The translations under genes were made by a program, and so were the position numbers. The notes under the pieces were generated by a model. It was given only the letters and a program-made list of their open reading frames with translations, did not search any database and was not told where the DNA came from. DNA of 63,204 bases, filler included, from Asterionella formosa (Eukaryota): NCBI GenBank assembly GCA_002256025.1. It is 18 parts of 18 records of this genome, joined end to end, with 100 filler letters (N's around TTAATTAATTAA, not from the genome) between each part and the next. Parts side by side here need not be neighbours in the genome. Positions count along the whole stretch, not along the records: positions 10,585 to 14,010 come from NKIB01014163.1; 17 more parts are not named here. The stretch is one strand, 5' to 3'. Shown here in pieces: positions 1,698 through 51,320 of this stretch (its first letter is position 1; each line of letters begins with the position of its first letter).

Positions 1698-3430
1698 TGT
1701 TAAATTCTTCTGCAGTTTGACTGCAATGCTAGCTCTTTCTAGACAAGCTCAGTGTATTAAAACCTTCTGTTCTAATCCCACCTTATTGTGAGCTTATCTG
1801 ATCTATCTTGTAATCGTTCACATGACCAATTATTAAGGTTCTCTTCCCAAATTTGTATATAGATATTCATTGTGTTGTTAGACATTCAATTCTCAACTGA
1901 CAACTCAACTCCACTCACTTAGTAGAACAATCGTGAATATTCAATGCTGCCTATCTGCATTGCATATATACCTTTCCTTCATTGAAATATTGATTACTTA
2001 GAACATTCTCCATTCGAATATTTACCTTGGTTTGCTGATATAGTTCTTGGCAATCAATGCTGTTCAAATTCTCACAGCATTTCAATACGGGATTTTGGCT
2101 TGAATATTAGCTATTCAAGATTGATTAGTTCGACTGAACTAATATGCACGCAGTAGTACTAAATCTTGACATCCTCCCTGTTCCAGTTCCAACAATCCAT
2201 TGTCCCATTGCAAATCTTCTCACGTATAAAATGATATCTGACATCAATATGCTTTGTCCTTGATCCAACTTGTTGGTTTTTGCTTAGGAAAGCAAATCGC
2301 TCCAGTGTTATCCTCAGCAATTATTGCTGGCAGTTCCACATAGTAGACCTCATCCAATAGATTTGTAACAAATGTAGTATCCTTGACACCGTCGCTTAGG
2401 CTGACATACTCAGCTTCTGTGCTTGATGTTGTTACAACATTCTGTCCATTGGATGACCAAGTCACCAAGGAGCGTGCTCCAATAGTTCCGAGAAATGCAC
2501 TTGTACTTTTGCGAGTATCAGGGTTAATTGCAAATGCACTGTCAACAACATCCATTGGGCGCATTTCTTTAGGGGTTCGCATCTTCATACGCCGATGTTT
2601 CTTGTCTACATATAAGAATCCCAACAGACGTTCAACCGCCTTCCAATGAGCCTCTCCTGGATTCTCCAGATGCTGAGACAATTCTCGACATGCATTGGCA
2701 CAAATTGGAGATATCTTCTTTACGAAGTATAAGATTTTTCCAACCATGGATCTGTATTCACCATGTAGAACAGTGTGGGCATCATTCTTGGACAAACTTG
2801 TACCTGGCAATTCGGGAGTTGGTGCAATTGCGGGATAACATCCAAAGAGATTCTTATAGTCTTCAAACATTCCTTCATTGTAAACCTCCATAGTAGATTC
2901 AAGAAATCTTCCATCAGCATCCTCTCCCCAGTCATACCAAACTCCTAAATGTTTTTTGATTGGTCCGAGTTCCTTTATGGTGAAATGCTTCTTGGCTTCA
3001 GCCTTAAGCCAGTCAACATCGGCTTGTTCTCCTGCAACAATGCAGTCATCAACAAAGATACAAACAATTAGATACAATTTAAAATCACGTTTCAAGAAGA
3101 AAATGCATGAATCCACTTTGCTCTGTTTCATTCCAATGAGAATCAGATGCTCCACAAGTTTCTTGTACCACTGTCGCGCAGCCTGCACCGTTCCATACAT
3201 GGCTTTACTTAGAAGAATACAATTTTCTGAGACAACCTTGTTGTCTTCAAAGCCAAACTCAACAACGCCTTCAGGCCATACAAGGTAGATGTCTTCCTCT
3301 AAGTCTCCTTCAAGAAAGGATGCTTCGACGTCAATGACCTCCAAAGTCCATGTCTTCTTGTGCATGGTGATTGCAAAGACAACTCTGATACTTGTATCCG
3401 TAGCCACAGGTGCAAACGAGTCGGTAAAAT
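1698..3430 (-). mobile_element. Ty1/copia LTR retrotransposon 3' part (RT-RNase H, PPT, putative 3' LTR 1698-2171)
   Basis: RT motifs IDVEASFLEG, LSKAMYGTVQAARQW, FVDD; RNase H VVTTSSTEAEYVSL, EDNTGAI. Purine tract GGGAGGA precedes TGTCAAG at 2171; candidate LTR end ..TTAACA at 1698. Frameshifted near the C-terminus. Confidence 0.85.
2244..3430 (-). pseudogene. copia reverse transcriptase/RNase H, 5'-truncated by contig end
   Basis: 387-aa ORF with RVT_2-type and copia RNase H motifs. Confidence 0.9.
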
Positions 3431-3530
3431 NNNNNNNNNNNNNNNNNNNNNNNNNNNNNNNNNNNNNNNNNNNNTTAATTAATTAANNNNNNNNNNNNNN
3501 NNNNNNNNNNNNNNNNNNNNNNNNNNNNNN
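3431..3530. other. Artificial contig spacer (first of 17): N44-TTAATTAATTAA-N44
   Basis: An identical linker recurs about every 3.5 kb; contig lengths decrease monotonically. Confidence 0.99.
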
Positions 3531-4185: not shown

Positions 4186-6447
4186 TGTCAGAGAGAGAGA
4201 GGGAGAGACGATCGCTTACAATGGATTGACAGCGATCGATTGATAGAGAAAGTGAGTTTTAGAGTGAAAGATTTAGGGATGCTATTGCTAGCTACTGGGA
4301 AAGACCTACTTGCGTATGTTCTAGTACAGGGTAACCGGTACCCTGTACTAACACCCCCCTGGAGTAGGAAATTTTCCGCGGGGCGGAACAATAATATTGC
4401 GGAGGCGGAGAAAATGGGCATCGTCCTTGTGTTCTTTGGTGAAGAGATCAGCAACATTAAGGGCACCAGGGAGGTGGGCAATGAGGAATTCGGAACAACG
4501 ATGAGCATCGCGAACAGCCATGTTGCAGATGTTTAAATGGCGCATTTTCTTGTTGGCACAGTTGTGGGAACAGTCGACCGCACCCTTATTATCATTCCAG
4601 AGGGTGGTGGGGAGTGTAATCTCTGGCATGTGGAGATCAGCGAGGAGGTGATGGATAAACTGTGTAACTTTGGTACCTTCGTCAGCAGATTTGATTTCAG
4701 ATTTGCAGGTACTACTACGGCTGACCTGAGGTTTGCGAATGACATGCCAAGCCAGTGGGCCACCAGTATGAGTACTAATGGAGCCAAGGAGAGTGAGAGT
4801 GATGAGGTCACTGGGGTGAGGTTTAGAGGCGTCCTGGCTGCTGGGGGCCCCAGTTAGCATCGGTATAGGTGGTGAGGAGAGGATCATCCTTGGGCCAACC
4901 ATAGGTAGTGGAGAGGTAGGAGGATGCAGACTGGGAGGTGAAGGCAATACCATGGTCAAGGGACCCAGAAAGGTAGCGTAAAACATATTTAGCACCAAGT
5001 AGGTGGGCCGGAGTGGCCGTAGAATTATACTGCGCAAGGAGAGTGACAGCGACAGAGAGATCGGGACGAGTGCTAATCGCGAGCCAGTTGAGAGCGCCAA
5101 TGAGGGATTGGTAGGCGGTAATGATGGTAGCATGGGCTAAGGGGCTAAGGTCAGCGCCGTCGGGGGTAATACGATTGTACACGAGACCCGAGCGGTAGGG
5201 AGTAGGCGCAGACCGACAGGTGGTGGTCATATCAAAGCGTTCAAGGAGGTTATGGAGGTAAGCCTCCTCCTGAGAGAGATGGACGGAGAGGTGGGTATCA
5301 CTAGAAGAAGGAAACCAGGCAAAGTAAATGCCCAAAAACCAGTAAATAGGCCCCATAAAATCGACACGGAGGGAGGCGGCGACGGACGCCTCAAACCATT
5401 GTTCAACGTCATCACTGACCGAGAAATAGCTAGGCGAAGTCATCAACATAGATGCCAACATAGAGAGGGGGGTAGCCAGTGAGGACAGGCCCATAGAAGA
5501 GGCAGGGTTCGTGGGGGCATTGAGCAAGACCAAGGGAGAGGAGGACGTCCCGAAAAAAGGTATACCAGTGGCGGGGGCTACGTCGGAGGCCGTATAGGGT
5601 TTTGTGAAGTCGCCAATAGGTACCAGGGGGGGAAAGGGACAACCGGGAGGGGGGCGGACAACAACCACTTCATGAGGGGGGAGTGTCGGATGACAGAAGG
5701 CATTCTTGCAATCTCCCTGTTTAAGGTGGCGACGACGTTCTATGGCAAGGGAAAGAAGGAGGTGGAGCAAGATTTGGCTTAAGACTGGAGCGTACGTGTC
5801 GGATTTTGACCAATAGCTAGGTGTCCTCAAGGTTCCCTAGGACAACAATACGGGATTTAGCGCGGACCGGATGGCCCAGTTCGTCGCACTTGATGGTAAG
5901 GACCGTCATGCAGGGAAGAACCTTGCAGGGGAGGAGTGAGAGTTGGTGCTTGGTAATAATGGAGAAGGTGTCTTGTGCTAGGAGCAAGTCATATTCTTCG
6001 CGATAGGAGTCAAGCCACACGGGGCTGTCCGGGAAAGTGGGGAGTGTGCTGAATGGTGCGGCAGGGGCGGTGCAGGATGATGTAAAGATGATGCAACATA
6101 CTCAGGCGACGACGTGGGAACGTATATGGAGGGAGGATGACCATGAGCGGCAAAGGAGTGGTGGTACAGGGCATCGCCATGAGGAGGCGGCGGCGAATCG
6201 GGGCGCCACAGTGGATCTCGATGGGCGTCGGGCGAGGTAGAGCGCATTATGAGAAATCAACCGGAAGGGATCAATAACCTGTCAGAGAGAGAGAGGGAGA
6301 GACGATCGCTTACAATGGATCAACAGCGATCGATTGATAGAGAAAGTGAGTTTTAGAGTGAAAGAATTAGGGATGCTATTGCTAGCTACTGGGAAAGACC
6401 TACTTGCGTATGTTCTAGTACGGGGTATCCGGTACCCTGTACTAACA
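4186..6447 (-). mobile_element. Internally deleted Ty1/copia element with two 168-bp LTRs and 5-bp TSD
   Basis: LTRs 4186-4353 and 6280-6447 (TG..CA, 5 mismatches); TSD CCTTA at 4181-4185 and 6448-6452; PPT AGGGGGG next to the 3' LTR; PBS-like GGTTATTGATCCC after the 5' LTR; interior holds frameshifted RT (RAKSRIVVLGN, LYGLRRSPRHW, IYVDD) and RNase H (YTDANWG, NVADLFTK). Confidence 0.95.
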
Positions 6448-6958: not shown

Positions 6959-7072
6959 NNNNNNNNNNNNNNNNNNNNNNNNNNNNNNNNNNNNNNNNNN
7001 NNTTAATTAATTAANNNNNNNNNNNNNNNNNNNNNNNNNNNNNNNNNNNNNNNNNNNNAGAGTTTGCAGTTT

Positions 7073-8299: not shown

Positions 8300-9253
8300 T
8301 TTGATTCAGGAGTGATATTGCTTCCATGATCAGACACTTAGACTATATATAGTCTGCTTTTGTGTATGAAAATATGCATCCATATGTATGATATTGATCG
8401 ACAATCGAGCATGCATGCTTCGAGGAGTCCTCCTACCTNNNNNNNNNNNNNNNNNNNNNNNNNNNNNNNNNNNNNNNNNNNNNNNNNNNNNNNNNNNNNN
8501 NNNNNNNNNNNNNNNNNNNNNNNNNNNNNNNNNNNNNNNNNNNNNNNNNNNNNNNNNNNNNNNNNNNNNNNNNNNNNNNNNNNNNNNNNNNNNNNNNNNN
8601 NNNNNNNNNNNNNNNNGGTACCAGGTACCTGGTACACAAGTCGCAGTTGCGGACGCGCTCTGAAATTGAAAAAATATTATTTTGGTGATTGAAATACCGG
8701 TACTGGTTTAGGTATCCCCAGGTCTACCAGCTGTATCTTACTAATTTGGGCAGAGAGTACCGGTACGTCACGGAGGAATACCCGGTATATAGGAACATGA
8801 GCGAGCGAAACGACCACGTACTGACGAGCCTGGTGCCTCCCATAAGCGATGATCGTGGCACTAGCGTAACAGCGTAATAACGTAATCATAACGAACAGGG
8901 CAATACAAGCAAGGAGAAAGAAATAAAGGTATCTGGTACCAGGTACCTGTTACAATACTGATGAATGTAGAGCAAAAATAGCAACTGGTTTGTAGGGACC
9001 GTTATAATTGTACATAAACTTATATACAGTACACATCAAAAGTGTTTACGAACTGCGGTATACTTACTACAAACCTGGTACCAGGTACCGGTACCTTGCA
9101 CTACAACTGTGACCTTCTGCAGGACATGTGTGAGTTTATTGACTCGTCGAACTGACAGCAACATTTCAGCTTTGGTTTCTCAGTGTTCGTCCTCAACTTA
9201 CTTACTTGTTCGCTTATAGAGAAATCAAAACTTGAAAGATAGTAAATTGGAAT

Positions 9254-10358: not shown

Positions 10359-10584
10359 GGCATACCTGGATTAACTTCTCAATCCTTCTTTGGATTATTG
10401 CTAGCTAATAAGTAGCATCGGTAACTCACAAAAAGCCTGCCCGTCCATTATGAGTCTACTCTGTCATCCTTTGTTTAGCCTTTCNNNNNNNNNNNNNNNN
10501 NNNNNNNNNNNNNNNNNNNNNNNNNNNNTTAATTAATTAANNNNNNNNNNNNNNNNNNNNNNNNNNNNNNNNNNNNNNNNNNNN

Positions 10585-10700
10585 AGGAGCATTCGCATGC
10601 CGTTCCGAATGAGCAGGCTTTATTTCATTAATGAAACTCTTCAATTTAGTTGAATGAGCTCCAGAAAATTACGTAAACAAATTTAACATATTAAGTGAAC
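10585..10700 (+). repeat. Dispersed repeat shared with 56090-56193
   Basis: CATTCGCATGCCGTTC(C/G)GAATGAGCAGGCTTTATTTCATTAATGA...CCAGAAAATTACGTAAACAAAT is present at both places. Confidence 0.85.
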
Positions 10701-10710
10701 TTTATTCTAG

Positions 10711-10832
10711 AATTATGTGAACGAAATTACAGAATTACGTGAAGGATTTCAAATAATTATGTGAAGTATTTCAAATAATTATGTGAAGTATTTCAAATAA
10801 TTATGTGAAGTATTTCAAATAATTATGTGAAG
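10711..10832 (+). repeat. 22-bp minisatellite (AATTATGTGAAGTATTTCAAAT)n, about 5 copies
   Basis: Direct tandem copies visible in the sequence. Confidence 0.9.
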
Positions 10833-13004
10833 GTGATCACATAATATAGTGATGATCAGGAATGCATGCATGATACTTTGATCAAATATTTAACGTGATG
10901 TATTCAGATAATATATAGACATGTTCAACTACGTATTTTGATGTATTCAACTAATTCATGTGATGCATTCAAAATCAACTAGGCTTATTTACGTGATGGT
11001 CACTTCACGTAATACGCGGCTTAGATGCAGGCGATATTGAAAGATGATGTGGTTGTATCTATAGCGTATTCCACTTAGTTGTCAGTTCTTTCAAATATAA
11101 ATTAGCTCTGAATAGGTGGTAAATTTTTAAACATGTGATGCTGGAAAAAGTGAAGGGGACTCGACCTAGTTCTTAGTTCTTTTGAATATAAGATAGCGCT
11201 GGTTAGGTGCTGTTTAATTCTTATACATGTGATGCTGGAAGAAGTGAAGGGGACTCCATCAATTGACGAATTACGAGATATTCAGCCAACTCATGGAGGA
11301 GGCAGTCCTGATGAAATGGAATTAATGTTTGCATAGGAAGAAAGGACAATATAAATACAAAGTGAAGAGATGAATGAGGTCAAGCAATTTCAGGAATAAT
11401 TTTTACATACAACTGGCAAAGAACTGACTTTGAAAGAATGAGTTTATGTACGATAAGATTTGGATTTCTTTGCAAGAAACAGCTTCTTTTGAGACTAGTA
11501 AGGAGAATTTGAATTTGACTATCCAATTGACTTTGGGAATTGAGTATCAGAAGTTTGTTGTAGTCCTGCAAAAGTATGTTGGAGAAGGTCTGTGAAAACT
11601 AGCTAGGAGCAAAATGTGCACCAAACAGGAATAAAAATGATGAAGGCAAGCTCATTTTTTTCCGAAAGGGATGTCATTGAGTCAGAATATTGCAGCATGG
11701 AATCGTAAATATAATGAAGTAATGGCATCATACATAGTGATGGTTAGACCTGCAATAAAAATACTCTCTGTGCAGTTCTACTCTCACACAAGTGATTGTG
11801 CCAAAATTGATTGGAAACATCTTCTTCCTGCTCACATGTGGTGGGTTTCAATTCTAACAAGACAACAATAAGGTTACTAATTTTGGCTCACCCTCAATGG
11901 GGGCTTTCAGACTTACTGTGATGGACCTGTACAAATCTAGATTGACTTCACTAGAAGTCTTGCTATGAGACACAAGTGCCCTGAAGGGAAAGCATGTTGT
12001 AGGTGCTAAAATACAACTTATGAGAGACACGAGGCTGTGTGTAATCAGAGGAAAGAGAGGTAAACCTTAACCCTAGCTACCGTTTGGTTTTTTAATACTG
12101 GCATACTTTACTAAGAACTAAGAACCAGTACATGACGTGCCTGCCTTCTTTGCTCTCTTGTTTCTCGTCTTACATAAAATTGGTTTATGCACGGACTACT
12201 TGGACTGTTAAGTGACACGAAACCTGAAAGGAGTATATTACCGGTGTATGATTTTATACCCATAAAGAGGGGTACATTAATAAGCAATGCATTTTCCCAG
12301 CAGCAAGAAGACGAGCGGCAGCAGACTGCAATCGAAACGTGATGTTATTTGCGAATTGCATTTCGTGCAGTGAGCGTACCGGGATGCTTTAACGGTACTG
12401 GTACCAGGCCTGGTAACAGAATCATCACACTATCTTAGTGCACCATACGGTACTCATATTCTGACGTATACTTTACAGATCGCTGACGTAGGTGAGCTAA
12501 GGGAGCAAATTTTCACTGGGGGCACGATATACAGATCCGTTGGCACGATAAGATCTTCATCTCAAATACGTGACAATGACTGCAACCGGTATTTAATCAC
12601 AGCAATACCAAATCCTTTTTTGCTCGCCCCCCAGGAAATATTGTATCCTTGCGAATGTTGGCGTCATCGCCCGGGTAGGAAGCAATGGTTGTATTTACGT
12701 GTCACTGTAGCTACCTGTGTATGTAGGAATGAACAAAGTCTGTTGTTGCAGTGACGGTGACGACGATTGTGTATCATTATTATTCCCATCAGCATATCTA
12801 TACTCGAATATGTTTATGTACGGTCAGTGGAGTGAAGTACGTCAATTGAACTACCGGTACCGGCATACCGCGGAATCAGTATGTACTTAGGCGAGACGAA
12901 GTGGTTGATGCGGATGAGTTCAACGAGAAAGAAAAATATCATGATGTAGCTCATTTATCTAAGGAAATACATCCATATCGATCGTTAGATCTAACTTGCT
13001 GATC

Positions 13005-13916
13005 ATGATGAAAGTGTCCGCTGCCCTTGCTCTACTACTCGCAACAGGTTCATTGGCCTTCCAGACTTGCAATGTTCATCAGATTGCGACAAGATTTGGC
13101 TCTGTCAATCAGCCCACGGCGCTTTCATCTTATCTCAACAGCATCTCAGGGCCACCTAAAGCTAGCGCTCCTGCTCAAGGAGCTGCCTTTGGCGCTGGCT
13201 ATCTCAGTTCTTTGCCTGGGAAGATCCATTCAACTCCTGTTATCGAGGTCAAGCCAGTGGCCCCTGCTGCCCCAGCTGCTAGTGGCTCCACGTTTGGAGC
13301 AAACTATCTCAGCTCCTTGCCAGGAAAGACATTTTCTACCCCTGATTTCACTGCAACGCCTGTCGCCCCAGTCTCGACGTCCACTGGCGGAACTGGATTC
13401 GGCACTGGTTATCTCAGCTCCTTGCCAGGAAAGGTCCACTCGACTCCTGTCGTTGCAGCGAAGCCCGCCGCTCCTGCCACTGGAGCTGGATTTGGCGCTA
13501 GCTATCTGAGCTCGTTGCCAGGCAAGACGTTTTCCACTCCTGTTGTTGCGGCCAAGCCTTCTACCCCTGTAGGTGGTCCTGGTTTTGGAACTAGCTATCT
13601 CAGTTCCTTGCCAGGGAAGACTTTCTCATCGCCTGTGGTTGCAGCCACGGCTGCCGCTGCAGCACCGCCTGCAAAAGGTTCTGCCTTTGGATCTGGTTAC
13701 CTCAGTTCCTTGCCAGGAAAAGTACATTCTATTCCTGTTGTTACAGTCACACCTGCTGCTATTGCTGCTCCTGTCTCTGCTACTAGTGGATCTGTCTTTG
13801 GGTCTAGCTATCTCAATTCCTTGCCAGGTAAGGTCCATTCTACTCCTACCATTATCCCAACGCCTCCCGCTAAAGCTCGTGGTGGTCCATTTGGTAGCTA
13901 CCTCAGTGGATTGTAA
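13005..13916 (+). CDS. Predicted plastid-targeted low-complexity repeat protein (FGxxYLSSLPGK repeats)
   Basis: Signal peptide MMKVSAALALLLATGSLA|FQ followed by a transit-like segment; 7 full and 2 partial YLxx(L/I) repeats separated by Ala/Pro/Thr-rich linkers; intact intronless ORF with synonymous variation between repeats. Confidence 0.85.
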   Translation: MMKVSAALALLLATGSLAFQTCNVHQIATRFGSVNQPTALSSYLNSISGPPKASAPAQGAAFGAGYLSSLPGKIHSTPVIEVKPVAPAAPAASGSTFGANYLSSLPGKTFSTPDFTATPVAPVSTSTGGTGFGTGYLSSLPGKVHSTPVVAAKPAAPATGAGFGASYLSSLPGKTFSTPVVAAKPSTPVGGPGFGTSYLSSLPGKTFSSPVVAATAAAAAPPAKGSAFGSGYLSSLPGKVHSIPVVTVTPAAIAAPVSATSGSVFGSSYLNSLPGKVHSTPTIIPTPPAKARGGPFGSYLSGL

Positions 13917-14110
13917 GTGCACATGATGGCTACACCAACCATTTTCTGATGATTGGGTTCAAAATACCACTTGCTACTACTTTTGTAATCCTTAGTGAAA
14001 AGGGATCGTTNNNNNNNNNNNNNNNNNNNNNNNNNNNNNNNNNNNNNNNNNNNNTTAATTAATTAANNNNNNNNNNNNNNNNNNNNNNNNNNNNNNNNNN
14101 NNNNNNNNNN

Positions 14111-18140: not shown

Positions 18141-21058
18141 TGTTGGAGAAATTATTTTAGGAAAGAAAATCCCGGTATAAATTACCTACTACATATTGAA
18201 TCGAATGAATCAAGAAAGAATATGGTACCAGAGAATTCGAAAACAATCTACGCCAACAGTAAAAAACCCATAATTCTATTAAAACTCTTAGGAACGATTA
18301 CAATCGATCACGGAGACATCGTTGTTCATATCTACAGCCTAATTGGTCCCTGACGTGTCCTTACAGGATACAAGAAAGCATAGAGTGCTTCGGGACGCAA
18401 TTTCAACAGTTTTAATAGAATTAGCCGGCCAGGAAGAGCCGTGATATCACAATCAACAACAAGCGGACAATTGAGAGTCCGGAGACAAGATCTGAGGGTA
18501 CCAGACCATCCAGAGTCTGAAGAAGTCGCACAAGGCGCATCATGAGTGGCAAAGGAAAGTTCACCAAGAAGGCTCAAGCCAAGGGCAAGTTTCAAGCCAA
18601 GGGAGGAGGCAATATTGCTTCTCACTCCATCAAGAAGTCAGTTAATGACTATAACTACTACCTCGGATCAGCAAAGCAGGCATCTGACTATGAGAATACT
18701 ACGGAGTATCTCATAAACTACATCAAGAAAGTATTTGATTATGGCAGCGACATTGGAATCGCGCTTAAGTCATTAGAACCAATCAACACATCGGTATGGA
18801 AGCCAAGAATGCAAGTGAGCATTGCAACAACAGAAGAAGATCGCGCTGCAGAGAATCGACAATATGAGATTGAGTTCAAGGCCAATTATGACACCTACAG
18901 TAAAAGGGTATGAGTCTACGAAAATAATAATACCAAGACATTTGCGTTGCTCTGGGAAAGATGCAACAAAGCCATGAAGAACAAAATTGAGGCGAGATCC
19001 GACTACCATAGGATTGAAAATAACCCAATAACATTGCTTATGGCAATTAAAGAACACGCACTAAATTTTCAAGAAAATCGATATTCAATGTCGATCATTT
19101 TAGATGCGATGAAAACGCTTTTATTAACAAAGCAGAAGGAAGGAGAAAGTCTACAAGACTACACCAAGAGATTTCGTGTGGCACGAGATGTGCTCAAGTC
19201 ACACATGGGAGGACCCATTATCCTCACCAAGTTCATTGCAGCCATGGATGGATACAACAAGACCGACATCAAGCAACAAGATAAATTTTGTGAACAAGCT
19301 TTCAGTCAATTTATGGCATATTTCTATCTCGATAATGCCGACAAGGCCAAATACGGATCAATTATGACTGGGCGGAACACTCAACAGTCACTCGGCAACG
19401 ATCAATACCCGAAGAGCATCACCGAATCAAATAATGTTCTCAGCAACCATCGGTTTGATGTAACAAATAAAGCCAACTACAAGAAACCAGGAGATAATAA
19501 TAAAGAGAGAGAACATAAGGATGCAGGGAAGGAAGACAAAGATGTGAACTTATCGTTTGCACAGTTAGAAGGAAAATGTTACTGCTGCAGAAAAGCAGGT
19601 CACAAATCTCCTTCGTGCCGAGACAAGAATAAACCCAAAGAGGAATGGGCAATTAACAAGGCCCAAAGCCATGCACAGGCACAGGCTAATACATCTGACA
19701 CAAGTACAGTTACCTCTGTTAATTCCAACAACCCGCCATCATCACAAGCTTCACAACAAGCAAATGTCAATCAATTTGGATGGATGGGAGCTCATATGAA
19801 ACTACAATTTTACCAAGCATCTGAGATGCGTGACTGGATACTATTGGATAATCAATCAAGTGTCACAGTCTTTTGCAATCCAAAAATGGTTGAAAATATT
19901 CGAATGTCAACCAACGGAAGCATGCACCTGGCCACAAATGGTGGATCCATGGTCACAAATATGAAGGCTGATCTTCCACAATGGGGAAAAGTATGGTTTA
20001 ATGAAAAGGCAATCACAGACATCTTCAGTTATGCCGAAATGGCAGATAGGTACAGAATTACTTATGACTCTGAGAAAGAAGAAGCATTCATTGTTCATTT
20101 GCCTGACAAAACAGTTCGATTTGAAAGAATTGGGATGAACTTATATGTTTTCAAGCCAACTACAAGAATTAAAGTGGAGAATGCTCAAATGTTAAATACA
20201 CTTGAAGAAAACAAAACATTTTACACTGAACGTCAATTTCAGAGAGCTAAGCGAGCTTGTGATCTATTTCATGCCTTGGGTACACCATCAATTAACGATT
20301 TCAAGGCAATAATTCGTATGAATACGATCAACAATAATCCAGTGACTACCGATGATATCAAAATTGCAGAGAAAATTTTTGGACCTGACATCGGAACACT
20401 AAAAGGCAAGACAACTTGTCGCAAGCCGCTGCCAGTCGTGAACGACTACATCGAGATTCCTAAGGAGCTTATCCAAGCTCAACGTGAAGTGACTCTTTGC
20501 ATGGATGGAATGAAAGTCAATGGACAATCATTTCTCACAACAATTTCTCGAAACATTATGTATAGGACAGCGCAATGGGTCAAGAATCAGACAGCTGAAG
20601 TCTATCGAGATGCTTTGATTCAAGTATTCCGTGTTTATAATACCGGAGGATTTAAAATTACAACAATCCACTGTGACAACGAGTTTCGACCTTTGATGGA
20701 ACAAATTTCCAATGAATTTCAAGTCACTATGAACTACGCAAACCCACAAGAACATGTTCCTGAAGCGGAGCGAAATAATCGAGTGATTAAAGAACGCGTG
20801 CGCGCAGCTTATCATCGATTACCTTTCAAACATTTGCCACGACTGATGATTACAATTCTAGTCACAGAATCTGCAAAGAAATTGAATTTCTTTCCGGCAA
20901 AGAACGGGATATCCCCGTATTACAGTCCTCGTATGATTCTACATCAACGAAACCTGGACTATGCTCGACATTGCCAGTATACATTTGGCACTTATGTCCA
21001 AGCACATGAAGAACCTGTGTTTTCAAACACTAATGCACCTCGCAGCCTAGATTGCATT
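18141..21058 (+). mobile_element. Ty1/copia (diatom CoDi-type) element: putative 5' LTR 18141-18336, gag-protease-integrase 18542-21058 with one in-frame TGA at 18911
   Basis: Zinc knuckle CYCCRKAGHKSPSC, protease WILLDNQSSVTVF, integrase IHCDNEF..QEHVPEAERNNRVIKER; TGTTGG..CTACA candidate LTR followed by a TGGTCCCTGACG PBS-like motif. Confidence 0.9.
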
Positions 21059-22834: not shown

Positions 22835-23034
22835 TACTGGTACTGGTACCAGACCAGGTAGTATATATGTCATGCATCAAATGTTTTTTCGTTTAAGATC
22901 CAAAACCACTGCATTTTCAGTTTTTTAAATTATTGTACACCTGCTCCTACATATCTTGATGAGCACATCAAGTTCAGCAAAAACCTCTCCCACAATCGAG
23001 CGCTATTCAGAACTTCAATCCTAAGAAAACGGAA

Positions 23035-24000
23035 ATGAAACTGGCTGCTCTCACGCTGATTGCGCTATCATCGCTGCAAGGGGTCTCTTGCTTCGTGCCT
23101 CTGACGCGATCGGCTCCGTTCCTAACCGCGCGCCTTCAACAATCGTTTTCTGATCATGCCTTGACCATCTCGGCTGCTGCCGCTGCGTTGAGAGGTCAGA
23201 CTGTCGTTGTCAAGTATGGAGGAAACGCAATGACTTCGCCCGAGCTTGCGCTTGGCTTCTGCCAAGACGTTGCAGCACTACAGAAACTCGGGATTCGAGT
23301 TGTCGTCGTGCACGGGGGTGGACCACAGATCTCTTCCATGTTGGATAAGGTTGGCGTTGAATCGAGATTCGAAGGAGGATTCAGAGTGTCAACCAAGGAA
23401 GTCGTCGAAGTTGCTGAGATGGTCCTTTGTGGAAGTGTCAATAAGGGCATCTCGTCGGCTATTTGCAGTGCTGGAGGTCGCGCAATTGGCCTCTCGGGCC
23501 GCGATGACTCTCTTTTGCAGTGCTCAAAGCAAATCAACGAGGATGGGTTTGATCTGGGATTTGTTGGAGCGGTGAAGACTGTGAATACCGATCTCTTGAA
23601 TCAGCTCTTAAAAATTGGAATCACGCCAGTTGTCAGCCCCATTGGGACTGGGATTGGAGATGAAGTGAACGTTGCTTTCAATGTTAATGCTGACACCGCA
23701 GCTGGCAGAATCGCCGGTGAGCTCAAAGCTGCTAGGGTTCTCTTCCTCACTGATATTGCTGGAGTTCTTGACAAGGAGAAGAATTTATTGAGGAAACTTA
23801 CTGTCGATCAAATCCAGGGCCTCATTGATGATGGGACAATTACCGGTGGCATGATCCCTAAAGTCCAGTACGCCACAAGCGCTGTTCAACTTGGAGTTGG
23901 CAGCGCGTTCATCACTGATGGCCGTATCCCACATGCATTGTTGAATCAGGTGCTTGGTGATGGTTCGGATGCCGAAGGTGGTACCATTGTTACCTTATGA
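23035..24000 (+). CDS. argB: Acetylglutamate kinase, plastid-targeted
   Basis: VVKYGGNAM, VVVHGGGPQI, NVNADTAA, LTDIAGVL, GGMIPKV, DGRIPHALL; signal peptide plus SC|FVP presequence. Confidence 0.96.
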   Translation: MKLAALTLIALSSLQGVSCFVPLTRSAPFLTARLQQSFSDHALTISAAAAALRGQTVVVKYGGNAMTSPELALGFCQDVAALQKLGIRVVVVHGGGPQISSMLDKVGVESRFEGGFRVSTKEVVEVAEMVLCGSVNKGISSAICSAGGRAIGLSGRDDSLLQCSKQINEDGFDLGFVGAVKTVNTDLLNQLLKIGITPVVSPIGTGIGDEVNVAFNVNADTAAGRIAGELKAARVLFLTDIAGVLDKEKNLLRKLTVDQIQGLIDDGTITGGMIPKVQYATSAVQLGVGSAFITDGRIPHALLNQVLGDGSDAEGGTIVTL

Positions 24001-49278: not shown

Positions 49279-49600
49279 GCTCGTTGGCTGGGTGGTAGGA
49301 AATCTAGTTGGCTGGGTGGTGGGCTCCGTGGTAGGTTTGCTCGTGGGCTGGGTGGTGGGAAATCTAGTTGGGTGGGTGGTTGGCTCCGTGGTAGGTTTGC
49401 TCGTGGGGTGGGTGGTAGGAAATCTAGTTGGCTGGGTGGTTGGCTCCGTGGTAGGTTTGCTCGTGGGCTGGGTGGTGGGAAATCTAGTTGGTTGGGTAGT
49501 GGGCTCCGTGGTAGGTTTGCTCGTCGGCTGGGTGGTAGGAAATCGAGTTGGTTGGCCGGTAGGAACAGAGGTAGGTTTGCTCGTGGGTTGAATGGTAGGA
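49279..49600 (-). repeat. Coding tandem repeat, 60-bp unit (PTTQPTSKPTTEPTTQPTRF)
   Basis: About 5 visible copies. Confidence 0.9.
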
Positions 49601-51320
49601 AAGTTGGTGGGCTTACTGGTTGTTGGGGACGGAGTAGATGGCGGAGCAGCAGGACAAGTAGAAGCCTGATTAGTCAAGCGAATTGAGAGGATCATATATT
49701 TTGGTTCGGTGGAAGTGGCGGCCACTATTTCACAAGCTTCAATGATGTACAAGCCGATCACAACACTTTGCGTAGCCGAGAGACCCCTTAGCATTGATGA
49801 TTCAGAAGTGCTACTTGGAGCCGTCACGATCGTGACCATGTCTGCCTTCTCTTGCACTTGAAAGTTAAATCCAGCCGCAAGGTTGTACTGGATGTAAAGT
49901 TGATCAACAATGATCAGAACATATTCATTGCGAGACGTAGCTGATGCATTGGCATAATCTACGAAACCCACAAGTTTGCCAGTCCAGGCTCCATTTGTTG
50001 CTGGTTGTACAGTGATTTGTTTGTCAGCATACCACCCGAGGACATAGTTCTTGTGTCCATTGAAGCACATCAATGGTGATCCAGTTCCAGAGTAGGAGTA
50101 ACCCATCATGCAGCTCTGGTCATCGTATGAATAACCATTCTCATTGGAGTGTTGAAGACCTAAGTTATGTCTGTTAACAATGGATTAGAGTGAGAGATAA
50201 GAAAAAAGAGCGACAGAAAATTTCATGTGAAATATGCACCCTTGGACTTACCCAATTTCATGCATTTTTCCACTGAGACTCAAACACTCACCTACAATAA
50301 TAGATCGACAAATAGAAGAGGATAGGTAAGCCCTTTGGATGAAGATGTTGAATATTTGGATTACTGAGACTGCACTCACCATCGTTATGATATGAATATT
50401 GTCCTGGAACGTATGCATAGGCGCCCCATTCTTTCGAACCGCCTGCAGTGAAAGTCGTGCCGTATGGCATGCAAAACATGATGTTGGAGAAAGTTTTCCC
50501 GAGATCAGCAACACCAAGCGAAGTCTTAACCGCATTTTTCAAGGAGTTTTCAAGGTCAAAGATGTTGATGTTGTTGACGGTTCCAGGAAGTAGGATGTCA
50601 ATGACTCCATTTGTCACCTTGTCTGGGTAACCACTTGCAGCAACAAATGTCAGTTTCCCTGCAGAGCATGAACTGAATTGGGCAGCCATAGAGTACTGCT
50701 GACCTCCAGTACCAAAAGCTGTATCTGCCAGGCTTGTGGACGAGGCGGATTGGGTGGATGAAGGGGCAGAGACACGAACAACAAGGAGTGATCGGGATCC
50801 TGTTTGAGCTAAATGACGGTCACGATTGGAAAGACTTGCAACGAAGTGAATTCCAGCATTTGGTGGAATAACAATGTAGTCTGGTTTTCCAAAAGCTGTA
50901 CGAATGGCAGAACCACCAATGATACAAATACTAGAAACGCCGGTGTCCAGCTTTTCCTTATGTGCAACGACAAAAGCTGTCGGGAGGTTGATAGAATATG
51001 CCATCTCCGATTCTCCATCACCCTCCTGGGTCTCGTCAGTTATACAGCGGTAGATTGAGGTGGGCCCTCGATCAGCCATCATGACATGGACGACTCCAAC
51101 ATTACAGTAGAGACATACTCCGACTTGCTTTTCAACTCCGGGAAGGCCCTACAGTAAGATGAAGGGAATGACGAGGAAATGTTATTTCCTGTTTCCAGTT
51201 AAGACTTTAATGATTAACAAGCATAGAGTGCAATAACGGACTTACCGATTCGTCCTGTGCAGTAGTGAGAACCAAGAGCAATGCCAATGCTGCACCGATG
51301 AGTGGGTGTCCAATTTTCAT
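49279..51320 (-). CDS. Secreted M11 (gametolysin-like) metallopeptidase with PT-rich tail; multi-exon, 3'-truncated
   Basis: Signal peptide from 51320; HEIG|HNLGLQH split by an intron (~50172-50251); YDDQSCMMGYS, CFNGHKNYVLGW. Confidence 0.9.

Follow-up and report, generated by a model that had tools for sequence, protein, structure and literature searches.

The window analysed here, a stretch of 63,204 nucleotides (nt) from the diatom Asterionella formosa (GCA_002256025.1), contains at positions 13005..13916 (+) the gene of a protein of 303 amino acids (aa), P0001, in which seven copies of one short sticker motif are strung along a chain predicted to be disordered, behind a presequence of the plastid-import type. 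Judged by its sequence relationships, P0001 appears to add a new variant, charge-reversed and regularly spaced, to DPC2, an established pyrenoid protein family of unexplained function. Tentatively, with a probability of about 0.45, P0001 may be imported into the plastid and serve as a disordered, multivalent scaffold in the pyrenoid matrix, the stickers of which would occupy a repeated site on a partner, most plausibly Rubisco.

The regular expression FG..YL.SLPGK..S.P matched all seven motifs (7/7), starting at aa 62, 97, 132, 163, 194, 228 and 265, that is, at intervals of 35, 35, 31, 31, 34 and 37 aa. The full 17-residue sticker, FGxxYLxSLPGKxxSxP, is encoded on the plus strand at 13188..13238 (aa 62-78), 13293..13343 (aa 97-113), 13398..13448 (aa 132-148), 13491..13541 (aa 163-179), 13584..13634 (aa 194-210), 13686..13736 (aa 228-244) and 13797..13847 (aa 265-281), and these seven copies belong to a total of nine YLxS(L/I) elements. 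A degenerate first motif, SSYLNSISGP (aa 41-50; 13125..13154, +), aligns in BLASTP and hhalign with the first TALSxSYLDxL of DPC2 proteins, and a short motif, FGSYLSGL (aa 296-303; 13890..13913, +), stands directly before the stop codon, as it does, in like form, at the ends of the related proteins P0002, P0003, P0006 and P0007. The linkers between the stickers are 14-20 aa long, differ in sequence and are rich in Ala, Pro, Val, Thr, Ser and Gly. At the DNA level, seven copies of a 101-nt unit, merely 62-74% identical to the reference copy, were reported by a repeat finder; the period given by Tandem Repeats Finder was 93 nt.

From two to four different codons are used at nine of the 11 invariant motif positions. 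When the copies were compared in all 21 pairings, synonymous differences at these 11 codons amounted to a proportion (pS) of 0.49 and nonsynonymous ones (pN) to 0; for all 17 motif codons the values were 0.57 and 0.127, respectively. Since the codons differ synonymously with a pN of 0 at the invariant positions, the copies are old, not the result of recent duplication or homogenisation, and the amino acids of the motif are held by purifying selection.

The 285 residues following the SLA|F site include one D and one E versus 13 K, 2 R and 5 H; W is absent, and S, A, P, G and T dominate. The isoelectric point (pI) of P0001 is 10.0, the net charge is about +13, and the single Cys, aa 22, lies in the transit-like part of the presequence. 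AlphaFold2 (AF2) gave a mean predicted local distance difference test score (pLDDT) of 41.9, a predicted template modelling score of 0.14 and 257 of 303 residues below 50, and the pLDDT of the ESM Atlas model was 0.47, both taken as proxies for disorder. No structured element was predicted by AF2 beyond the signal peptide. The ESM Atlas provided no usable feature match, with structural neighbours at template modelling scores of <=0.39, and the search of PDB sequences returned one match only, at an expectation value (E) of 0.2. The preliminary description of this DNA had reported seven near-invariant motifs about 30-37 aa apart with degenerate first (SSYLNSI) and C-terminal (FGSYLSGL) copies, linkers rich in Ala, Pro, Thr and Gly with hardly any acidic residues, synonymous codon variation with drifting linkers and selection on the motif, and a chain with no globular domain; all of these traits were recovered.

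The N-terminus comprises a putative signal peptide for the endoplasmic reticulum (ER), aa 1-18 (13005..13058, +), delimited by hydropathy, an AF2 helix at aa 3-20 and reading of the sequence. It lies in the sole segment of P0001 with a Kyte-Doolittle mean above 1.6 over 19 aa, within aa 1-22. The likely cleavage site, read from the sequence, has S at -3, A at -1 and F at +1, and is followed by a transit-peptide-like stretch, aa 19-40 (13059..13124, +), with no D or E, one R, one H and S or T at 4 of 22 positions. According to the accessible text of PMC4329603, the bipartite presequence of diatoms (the ASAFAP rule) must have F, W, Y or L at +1, and the diatom transit peptide is hydroxylated and net positive, with a low content of acidic residues; the +1 residue and the following stretch of P0001 agree with both statements. 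Among the seven listed relatives with complete N-termini, A|F is present in P0002 and P0003, and A|L in P0004, P0005, P0007, P0010 and P0019, while many DPC2 proteins contain ANAF, ASAF or APAF at about residues 15-18. In the alignment of P0001, P0002 and P0003, the string NQPTA of the transit-like stretch is invariant. These features make import of P0001 into the plastid probable.

The same data bear on another fate, that of a secretory-pathway product, for instance one found on the frustule, in mucilage or at the cell surface. The signal peptide at the N-terminus is of the classical kind; the mature protein abounds in Ser, Thr, Pro, Ala and Gly, bears Lys and has no fold, which likens it to many extracellular diatom proteins and would suit a secreted wall or mucilage protein; and a PT-repeat protein of extracellular type is encoded on another contig of the window. 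Silica-associated proteins are expected to carry Lys clusters, and none were seen in the P0001 sequence. Further points against secretion are the retention of A|F or A|L in all seven relatives listed with complete N-termini, the frequency of A|F in DPC2 proteins, the conservation of an acid-free stretch with an invariant NQPTA after the cleavage site, and the fact that the protein from which the related family takes its name is, in the accessible text of its description, localised solely to the pyrenoid (bioRxiv 10.1101/2023.10.26.564148). A secretory or cell-wall fate is accordingly the less likely one, and as an explanation of P0001 it is quite improbable.

The sole meaningful Pfam match of P0001 is PF25195 DPC2 ('Diatom pyrenoid component 2'), with an E of 4.3e-4 and 21.1 bits, which is far below the gathering cut-off of 70 bits, and it covers profile positions 62-99 of 105 only. 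The closer relatives P0002 and P0003 match the same profile at E of 3e-10 and 7.5e-12 (40.8 and 46 bits), and P0016, a match of the profile search, is a full member of the family (228 bits, five stretches). Of the 51 proteins retrieved in a search with P0016, 50 bear the precomputed PF25195 label; the named entries are from Skeletonema and Cylindrotheca, with one labelled Alexandrium. BLASTP aligned P0001 with P0016 at E of 3e-5, a second alignment covering the presequence and the first 'TALS-SYL' motif. In hhalign, the sub-family of P0001 and DPC2 were matched with 94.2% probability, E of 1.2e-7 and a score of 58.9, whereas two reversed controls scored 12.8-13.2 and 20 column-shuffled controls 8.1-15.5, none of the 22 exceeding 15.5; since the controls remained at 8.1-15.5 versus 58.9, composition is not the explanation of the DPC2 match.

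The shared motif core consists of G, Φ (hydrophobic), x, S/N, Y, L, D/S, S/G/A and L/V/I, with 128 instances in nine DPC2 proteins and 9 in P0001; the positions common to both are Y at 0, L at +1, S/N at -1 and L/V/I at +4. DPC2 proteins are likewise products of diatom nuclear genes with an A|F presequence of the bipartite type, their first motif also comes right after a 'TAL' stretch, and both they and P0001 carry many ΦxSYL(D/S)xΦ cores in a chain of low predicted structure. Taken together, these similarities indicate with good confidence that P0001 is a relative of the DPC2 superfamily. The idea of a sequence orphan with no relation to known pyrenoid proteins was thus not borne out, the protein being a distant DPC2 relative by Pfam, BLASTP and hhalign. 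Other parts of the preliminary interpretation were supported: the plastid-type presequence (a signal peptide ending SLA|F in a hydrophobic aa 1-22, F at +1 and a transit-like segment, aa 19-40, free of acidic residues), a disordered design of stickers and spacers, a motif under selection, and the lack of the KWSP motif of PYCO1, a Rubisco linker. Through the apparent kinship with DPC2, the pyrenoid idea gains independent support.

A word-indexed search with P0001 returned three proteins, and an exhaustive profile search among 1.84 billion representatives returned 17 at E<=1e-3; all close relatives are from environmental data. The closest, P0002 and P0003, are environmental proteins of 200-215 aa with 45-49% identity, the same presequence, four G(S)YLDGLPGKTF(S/T)TP motifs, C-terminal FGSYLxGL and a pI of about 10; the C-terminal end of the relatives reads FGSYL(A/D)GL. 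The exact YLxxLPGK extension was found in 15 of 75 proteins and in none of the 49 newly retrieved with the full DPC2 query (P0027-P0075). So small a family, with close relatives all environmental and a sub-threshold Pfam score for P0001, could also be expected of a fast-evolving, lineage-restricted repeat gene with no specific function, in which the likeness to DPC2 would be convergent low-complexity composition. This is very improbable: pN is 0 in the motif core versus a pS of 0.49, relatives at 45-49% identity retain the motif, the N-terminus and the C-terminal end, composition-preserving hhalign controls score 8-15.5 versus 58.9, and the stretch is present in eight RNA-labelled runs, contigs of four of which span the whole open reading frame (ORF).

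Several further proteins of this set differ from P0001 in architecture. The environmental protein P0007 (129 aa) matches the final 77 residues of P0001 exactly; beyond these it has a different, shorter N-terminal part, with only three full motifs. It might represent a paralogue, an allele of lower repeat number or an assembly in which repeats have collapsed. Three other environmental proteins, P0004 (483 aa), P0010 (578 aa) and P0012 (525 aa), begin with a P0001-type presequence, the first motif and one or two YLDGLP(G/R)K motifs, after which come an acidic spacer, a hydrophobic segment inside the chain (Kyte-Doolittle 1.9-2.0) and, at the C-terminus, a conserved domain; such proteins may carry the motif in membrane-anchored form. 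P0066 (506 aa), a transcript of the Marine Microbial Eukaryote Transcriptome Sequencing Project (MMETSP), combines a DPC1 motif (PF25193, 85 bits) with a DPC2 domain (127 bits), and its last residues are GGYLDSLTP, so the SYLDxL element is common to two named pyrenoid components. P0013, P0048 and P0050 (about 580-606 aa) are SYLD-repeat proteins with A|F presequences and a conserved end, ETFGGGF(I/V)I(S/N); P0050 comes from Cylindrotheca closterium, and P0013 has an N-terminal match to the cathepsin-propeptide inhibitor (I29) at E of 0.0015 and 19.2 bits, below the cut-off of 24.4 bits.

Within the common plan, P0001 departs from DPC2 in several respects. Four full-scoring DPC2 proteins are acidic (pI 4.0-4.4, net charge -17 to -37), whereas P0001 is basic; because their charge is opposite, P0001 need not share the partner of DPC2. 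Asp occupies motif position +2 in 94 of the 128 DPC2 instances, while Ser or Asn stands there in P0001, where the motif is also extended beyond the DPC2 core by LPGK(T/V)(F/H)SxP. The cysteines C80, C89 and C249 of P0016, invariant in the DPC2 alignment, have no counterpart in P0001. The period is a regular 31-37 aa in P0001, while the motif tyrosines of P0016 are about 18-26 aa apart. In the AF2 model of P0016 (pLDDT 33), all 18 motif tyrosines (18/18) lie in short helices, helices making up 48% of the chain, while no motif helix is predicted in P0001; the model of P0016 is a weak hint that the motif core can be helical.

The opposite charge on the same motif core, together with the occurrence of the motif in the DPC1+DPC2 fusion-type P0066 and in the hydrophobic-segment relatives P0004, P0010 and P0012, favours the main rival explanation. 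Under it, P0001 would be a plastid or pyrenoid protein other than a Rubisco linker, its stickers docking on acidic DPC2-type proteins (basic-acidic co-condensation), on the pyrenoid shell or on the traversing thylakoid, or it would be a client with a shared targeting motif. Because the motif occurs in these four proteins, a general address or docking tag is suggested over a linker-specific sticker, and the loss of DPC1, a sister component of DPC2, left the localisation of RbcS undisturbed (PMC13524088). A client, however, would need just one or two copies of the motif, whereas P0001 has seven, evenly spaced and under purifying selection, which argues that valency itself matters. The rival is on balance rather unlikely.

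The tie of P0001 to the DPC2 of Thalassiosira pseudonana rests on the Pfam family name of PF25195. In the accessible text of its description, T. pseudonana DPC2 is located solely in the pyrenoid, mainly in the matrix (bioRxiv 10.1101/2023.10.26.564148; Nam et al., Cell 2024), is a Rubisco interactor by affinity-purification mass spectrometry, a hub of the interaction network and relatively abundant, and is called a strong candidate for matrix assembly and a prime target (bioRxiv 10.1101/2023.10.26.564148). The same text states that no homologue or analogue of EPYC1 or PYCO1 was found in T. pseudonana and that its mechanism of condensation is unknown (bioRxiv 10.1101/2023.10.26.564148), and no T. 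pseudonana linker is named in the accessible part of a 2026 review (PMC13655443). In the literature on DPC2, diatom linkers and pyrenoid condensates, no description of the motif or of DPC2 function was found.

Linker searches (FLIPPer) rely on features such as at least three repeats, a pI above 8, a largely disordered chain and a spacing of 20-120 residues (PMC11570498; bioRxiv 10.64898/2026.07.16.738900). Of the five features compared, four are present in P0001, with 7-9 repeats, a pI of 10.0, disorder and a spacing of 31-37 aa; the fifth, a repeating structured element at the sticker, is not predicted (AF2, alignment of 12 sequences). The Rubisco linkers EPYC1, CsLinker and SUPA1 agree with P0001 in repeat number, pI, disorder and spacing, and SUPA1, with 291 residues and six repeats, is near P0001 in size and valency (bioRxiv 10.64898/2026.07.16.738900). 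These three differ from P0001 in their predicted helical stickers, in their origin in the green plastid lineage and in having no sequence similarity to it.

PYCO1 of Phaeodactylum tricornutum is likewise a diatom protein, mostly disordered and positively charged, with a pI of 10.03 versus 10.0 in P0001 (PMC10288592), and both proteins have aromatic residues within short repeated stickers. No sequence relation was found, the PYCO1_repeat profile matching P0001 at E of 2.7 and 8.3 bits. The stickers of PYCO1, KWSPRGGS and GTGYNP, belong to repeats about 80 aa long (accessible text of PMC13655443; PMC10288592), whereas P0001 has no Trp and a period of 31-37 aa; the sticker is of one type in P0001 and of two or three types in PYCO1. 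Binding and phase separation were demonstrated for PYCO1, while P0001 is a candidate by sequence. In the accessible text of the review, PYCO1 is specific for diatom Rubisco and does not demix with form IC Rubisco (PMC13655443), and no PYCO1 homologue was found in other sequenced algal species in the BLAST searches of its authors (PMC10288592).

The Rubisco-binding motif shared by Chlamydomonas pyrenoid proteins offers another parallel: it too is one short motif, like that which recurs in the multi-copy, DPC1-type and hydrophobic-segment proteins of the diatom set. It serves both linking and targeting, and its sequence is unrelated to the diatom motif (accessible text of bioRxiv 10.1101/2023.10.26.564148; bioRxiv 10.64898/2026.07.16.738900). 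By extension, ΦxSYL(D/S)xΦ might be the diatom counterpart of the Chlamydomonas motif, a pyrenoid address and docking code common to DPC2, DPC1-type and membrane-anchored proteins, with the basic, seven-valent, evenly spaced P0001 as an EPYC1-like linker condensing Rubisco in a diatom lineage supposed to have no PYCO1; this is a speculative and improbable proposal.

In the preferred reading, that of a pyrenoid-matrix scaffold, the product of an intron-less nuclear gene would enter the ER by means of its 18-aa signal peptide, and F at +1 with the transit-like stretch would pass it on into the four-membrane plastid. The mature protein of about 260 aa would be a disordered, strongly basic chain with seven full stickers and spacers of 14-20 aa, a divergent, charge-reversed branch of a DPC2-like family of ΦxSYL(D/S)xΦ motifs. 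Each sticker would bind weakly to a site repeated on a multimeric partner in the matrix, the prime candidate being the 8-fold symmetric Rubisco, and one chain would bridge several partners, and so would aid the condensation or organisation of the pyrenoid matrix in the manner of EPYC1, CsLinker, SUPA1 and PYCO1. The separate parts of this reading differ in strength: to judge by its sequence kinship, P0001 has slightly better than even odds of being located in the pyrenoid matrix, while direct cross-linking of Rubisco, argued by analogy with the known linkers, is somewhat unlikely.

A number of observations weigh against the scaffold reading. To the sub-threshold and partial Pfam match, the opposite charge of the full-scoring DPC2 proteins, the missing counterparts of their invariant cysteines and a composition that also fits secreted proteins is added the lack of any predicted helix at the stickers of P0001, in an AF2 alignment of 12 sequences only. 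The function of DPC2 is unknown according to its authors, and the expected repeat frequency of about 60 aa was seen in none of the pyrenoid proteins of Nam et al., as given in the accessible text (both bioRxiv 10.1101/2023.10.26.564148). Moreover, disruption of DPC1 left the localisation of RbcS-GFP unaltered (PMC13524088), and residence in the matrix therefore does not imply a structural role.

The gene of P0001 is virtually certain to be real and expressed. Positions 13005..13916 (+) form an intact intron-less ORF of 303 codons and a stop, which opens with ATGATG, the start being the first ATG within the stop-to-stop frame 12963..13916. RNA contigs of four runs, three from one study (X9, X10 and X7) and one from a second study (X14), span the whole ORF colinearly with no joint, so that the coding sequence is a single exon. 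On the DNA contig they start at 12966, 12970 or 12972 and end at 14005-14010, and those of X9 and X7 run 90 and 76 nt past 14010. As far as the DNA contig reaches, the mRNA thus occupies 12966..14010 (+), with its 5' end at about 12966-12972, a 5' untranslated region (UTR) of about 35 nt and a 3' UTR extending past the contig end. An intron at the stop codon, which a GTAAGT overlapping the stop would allow, was ruled out: because the RNA contigs are colinear and have no joint, this GTAAGT is not a splice donor, and the homologues also end at FGSYLxGL. Of the 24 runs listed, 20, which belong to 11 studies, contain the stretch in whole or in part, and eight of these 20 are recorded as RNA; the runs are labelled as freshwater, lake, riverine, algal or estuary metagenomes. 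Eight variants were found in the RNA contigs, a small sample: five leave the amino acid unchanged, and the other three are conservative replacements (N23T; I284V; and S279T, which falls on motif position 15).

The window consists of 18 pieces in descending order of length, from 3430 down to 3405 nt, joined by N44-TTAATTAATTAA-N44. The spacers lie at 3431-3530, 6959-7058, 10485-10584, 14011-14110 and so on, and a further run of N, at 8439-8616, is inside one piece. Since the window is a chain of separate contigs, neighbouring genes across a spacer are unlinked, and the sole stretch physically linked to the gene of P0001 is 10585..14010. Upstream of the gene (10585..12960) this contig contains short ORFs and AT-rich repeats only, including AT-rich nested palindromes and 22-nt direct repeats (ATTATGTGAAG...) at 10690-10845. 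No further copies of the motif were found elsewhere in the window by a six-frame search.

The other pieces contain ordinary eukaryotic genes and retroelement fragments. The latter lie at 2244-3365 (-), 4348-5836 (-) and 18914-21058 (+); one has a match to a Copia-type reverse transcriptase (RVT_2, 83.5 bits), and the other two are long ORFs that look polyprotein-like by eye, with no Pfam match at E<=1e-5 in the parts scanned (4823-5494 and 18974-21058). An acetylglutamate kinase is encoded at 22963-24000 (+) with a signal peptide ending VSC|F, another presequence of the plastid type; its best named relatives are from diatoms, namely Cylindrotheca (75-79% identity), Nitzschia (75%), Seminavis (72%) and Chaetoceros (68-71%), while the best match of all reaches 86% identity. 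The kinase thus puts the assembly among the diatoms, with no near named relative; should the assembly be mixed, this contig and that of P0001 may stem from different organisms. At 49279-50109 (-), a Thr/Pro-rich tandem repeat with units like PTTQPTSKPTTE (Pfam PT repeat, 49 bits) lies towards the C-terminus of an ORF that is truncated where its contig ends, and looks like an extracellular stalk of the mucin type.

About one fifth of global CO2 fixation is ascribed to diatom pyrenoids in the accessible literature, and PYCO1 is the only known diatom Rubisco linker. P0001 shows the DPC2 family to be built from one short repeated motif, and that a charge-reversed, evenly spaced, seven-valent form of this motif, with the physical parameters of proven linkers, exists in nature. 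Leaving Phaeodactylum aside, it ranks among the more concrete candidates for a diatom scaffold that organises Rubisco, and it makes the open question of condensation testable. If the scaffold reading is true, P0001 would represent a compact linker of the red lineage, and its motif would serve for finding further pyrenoid proteins.

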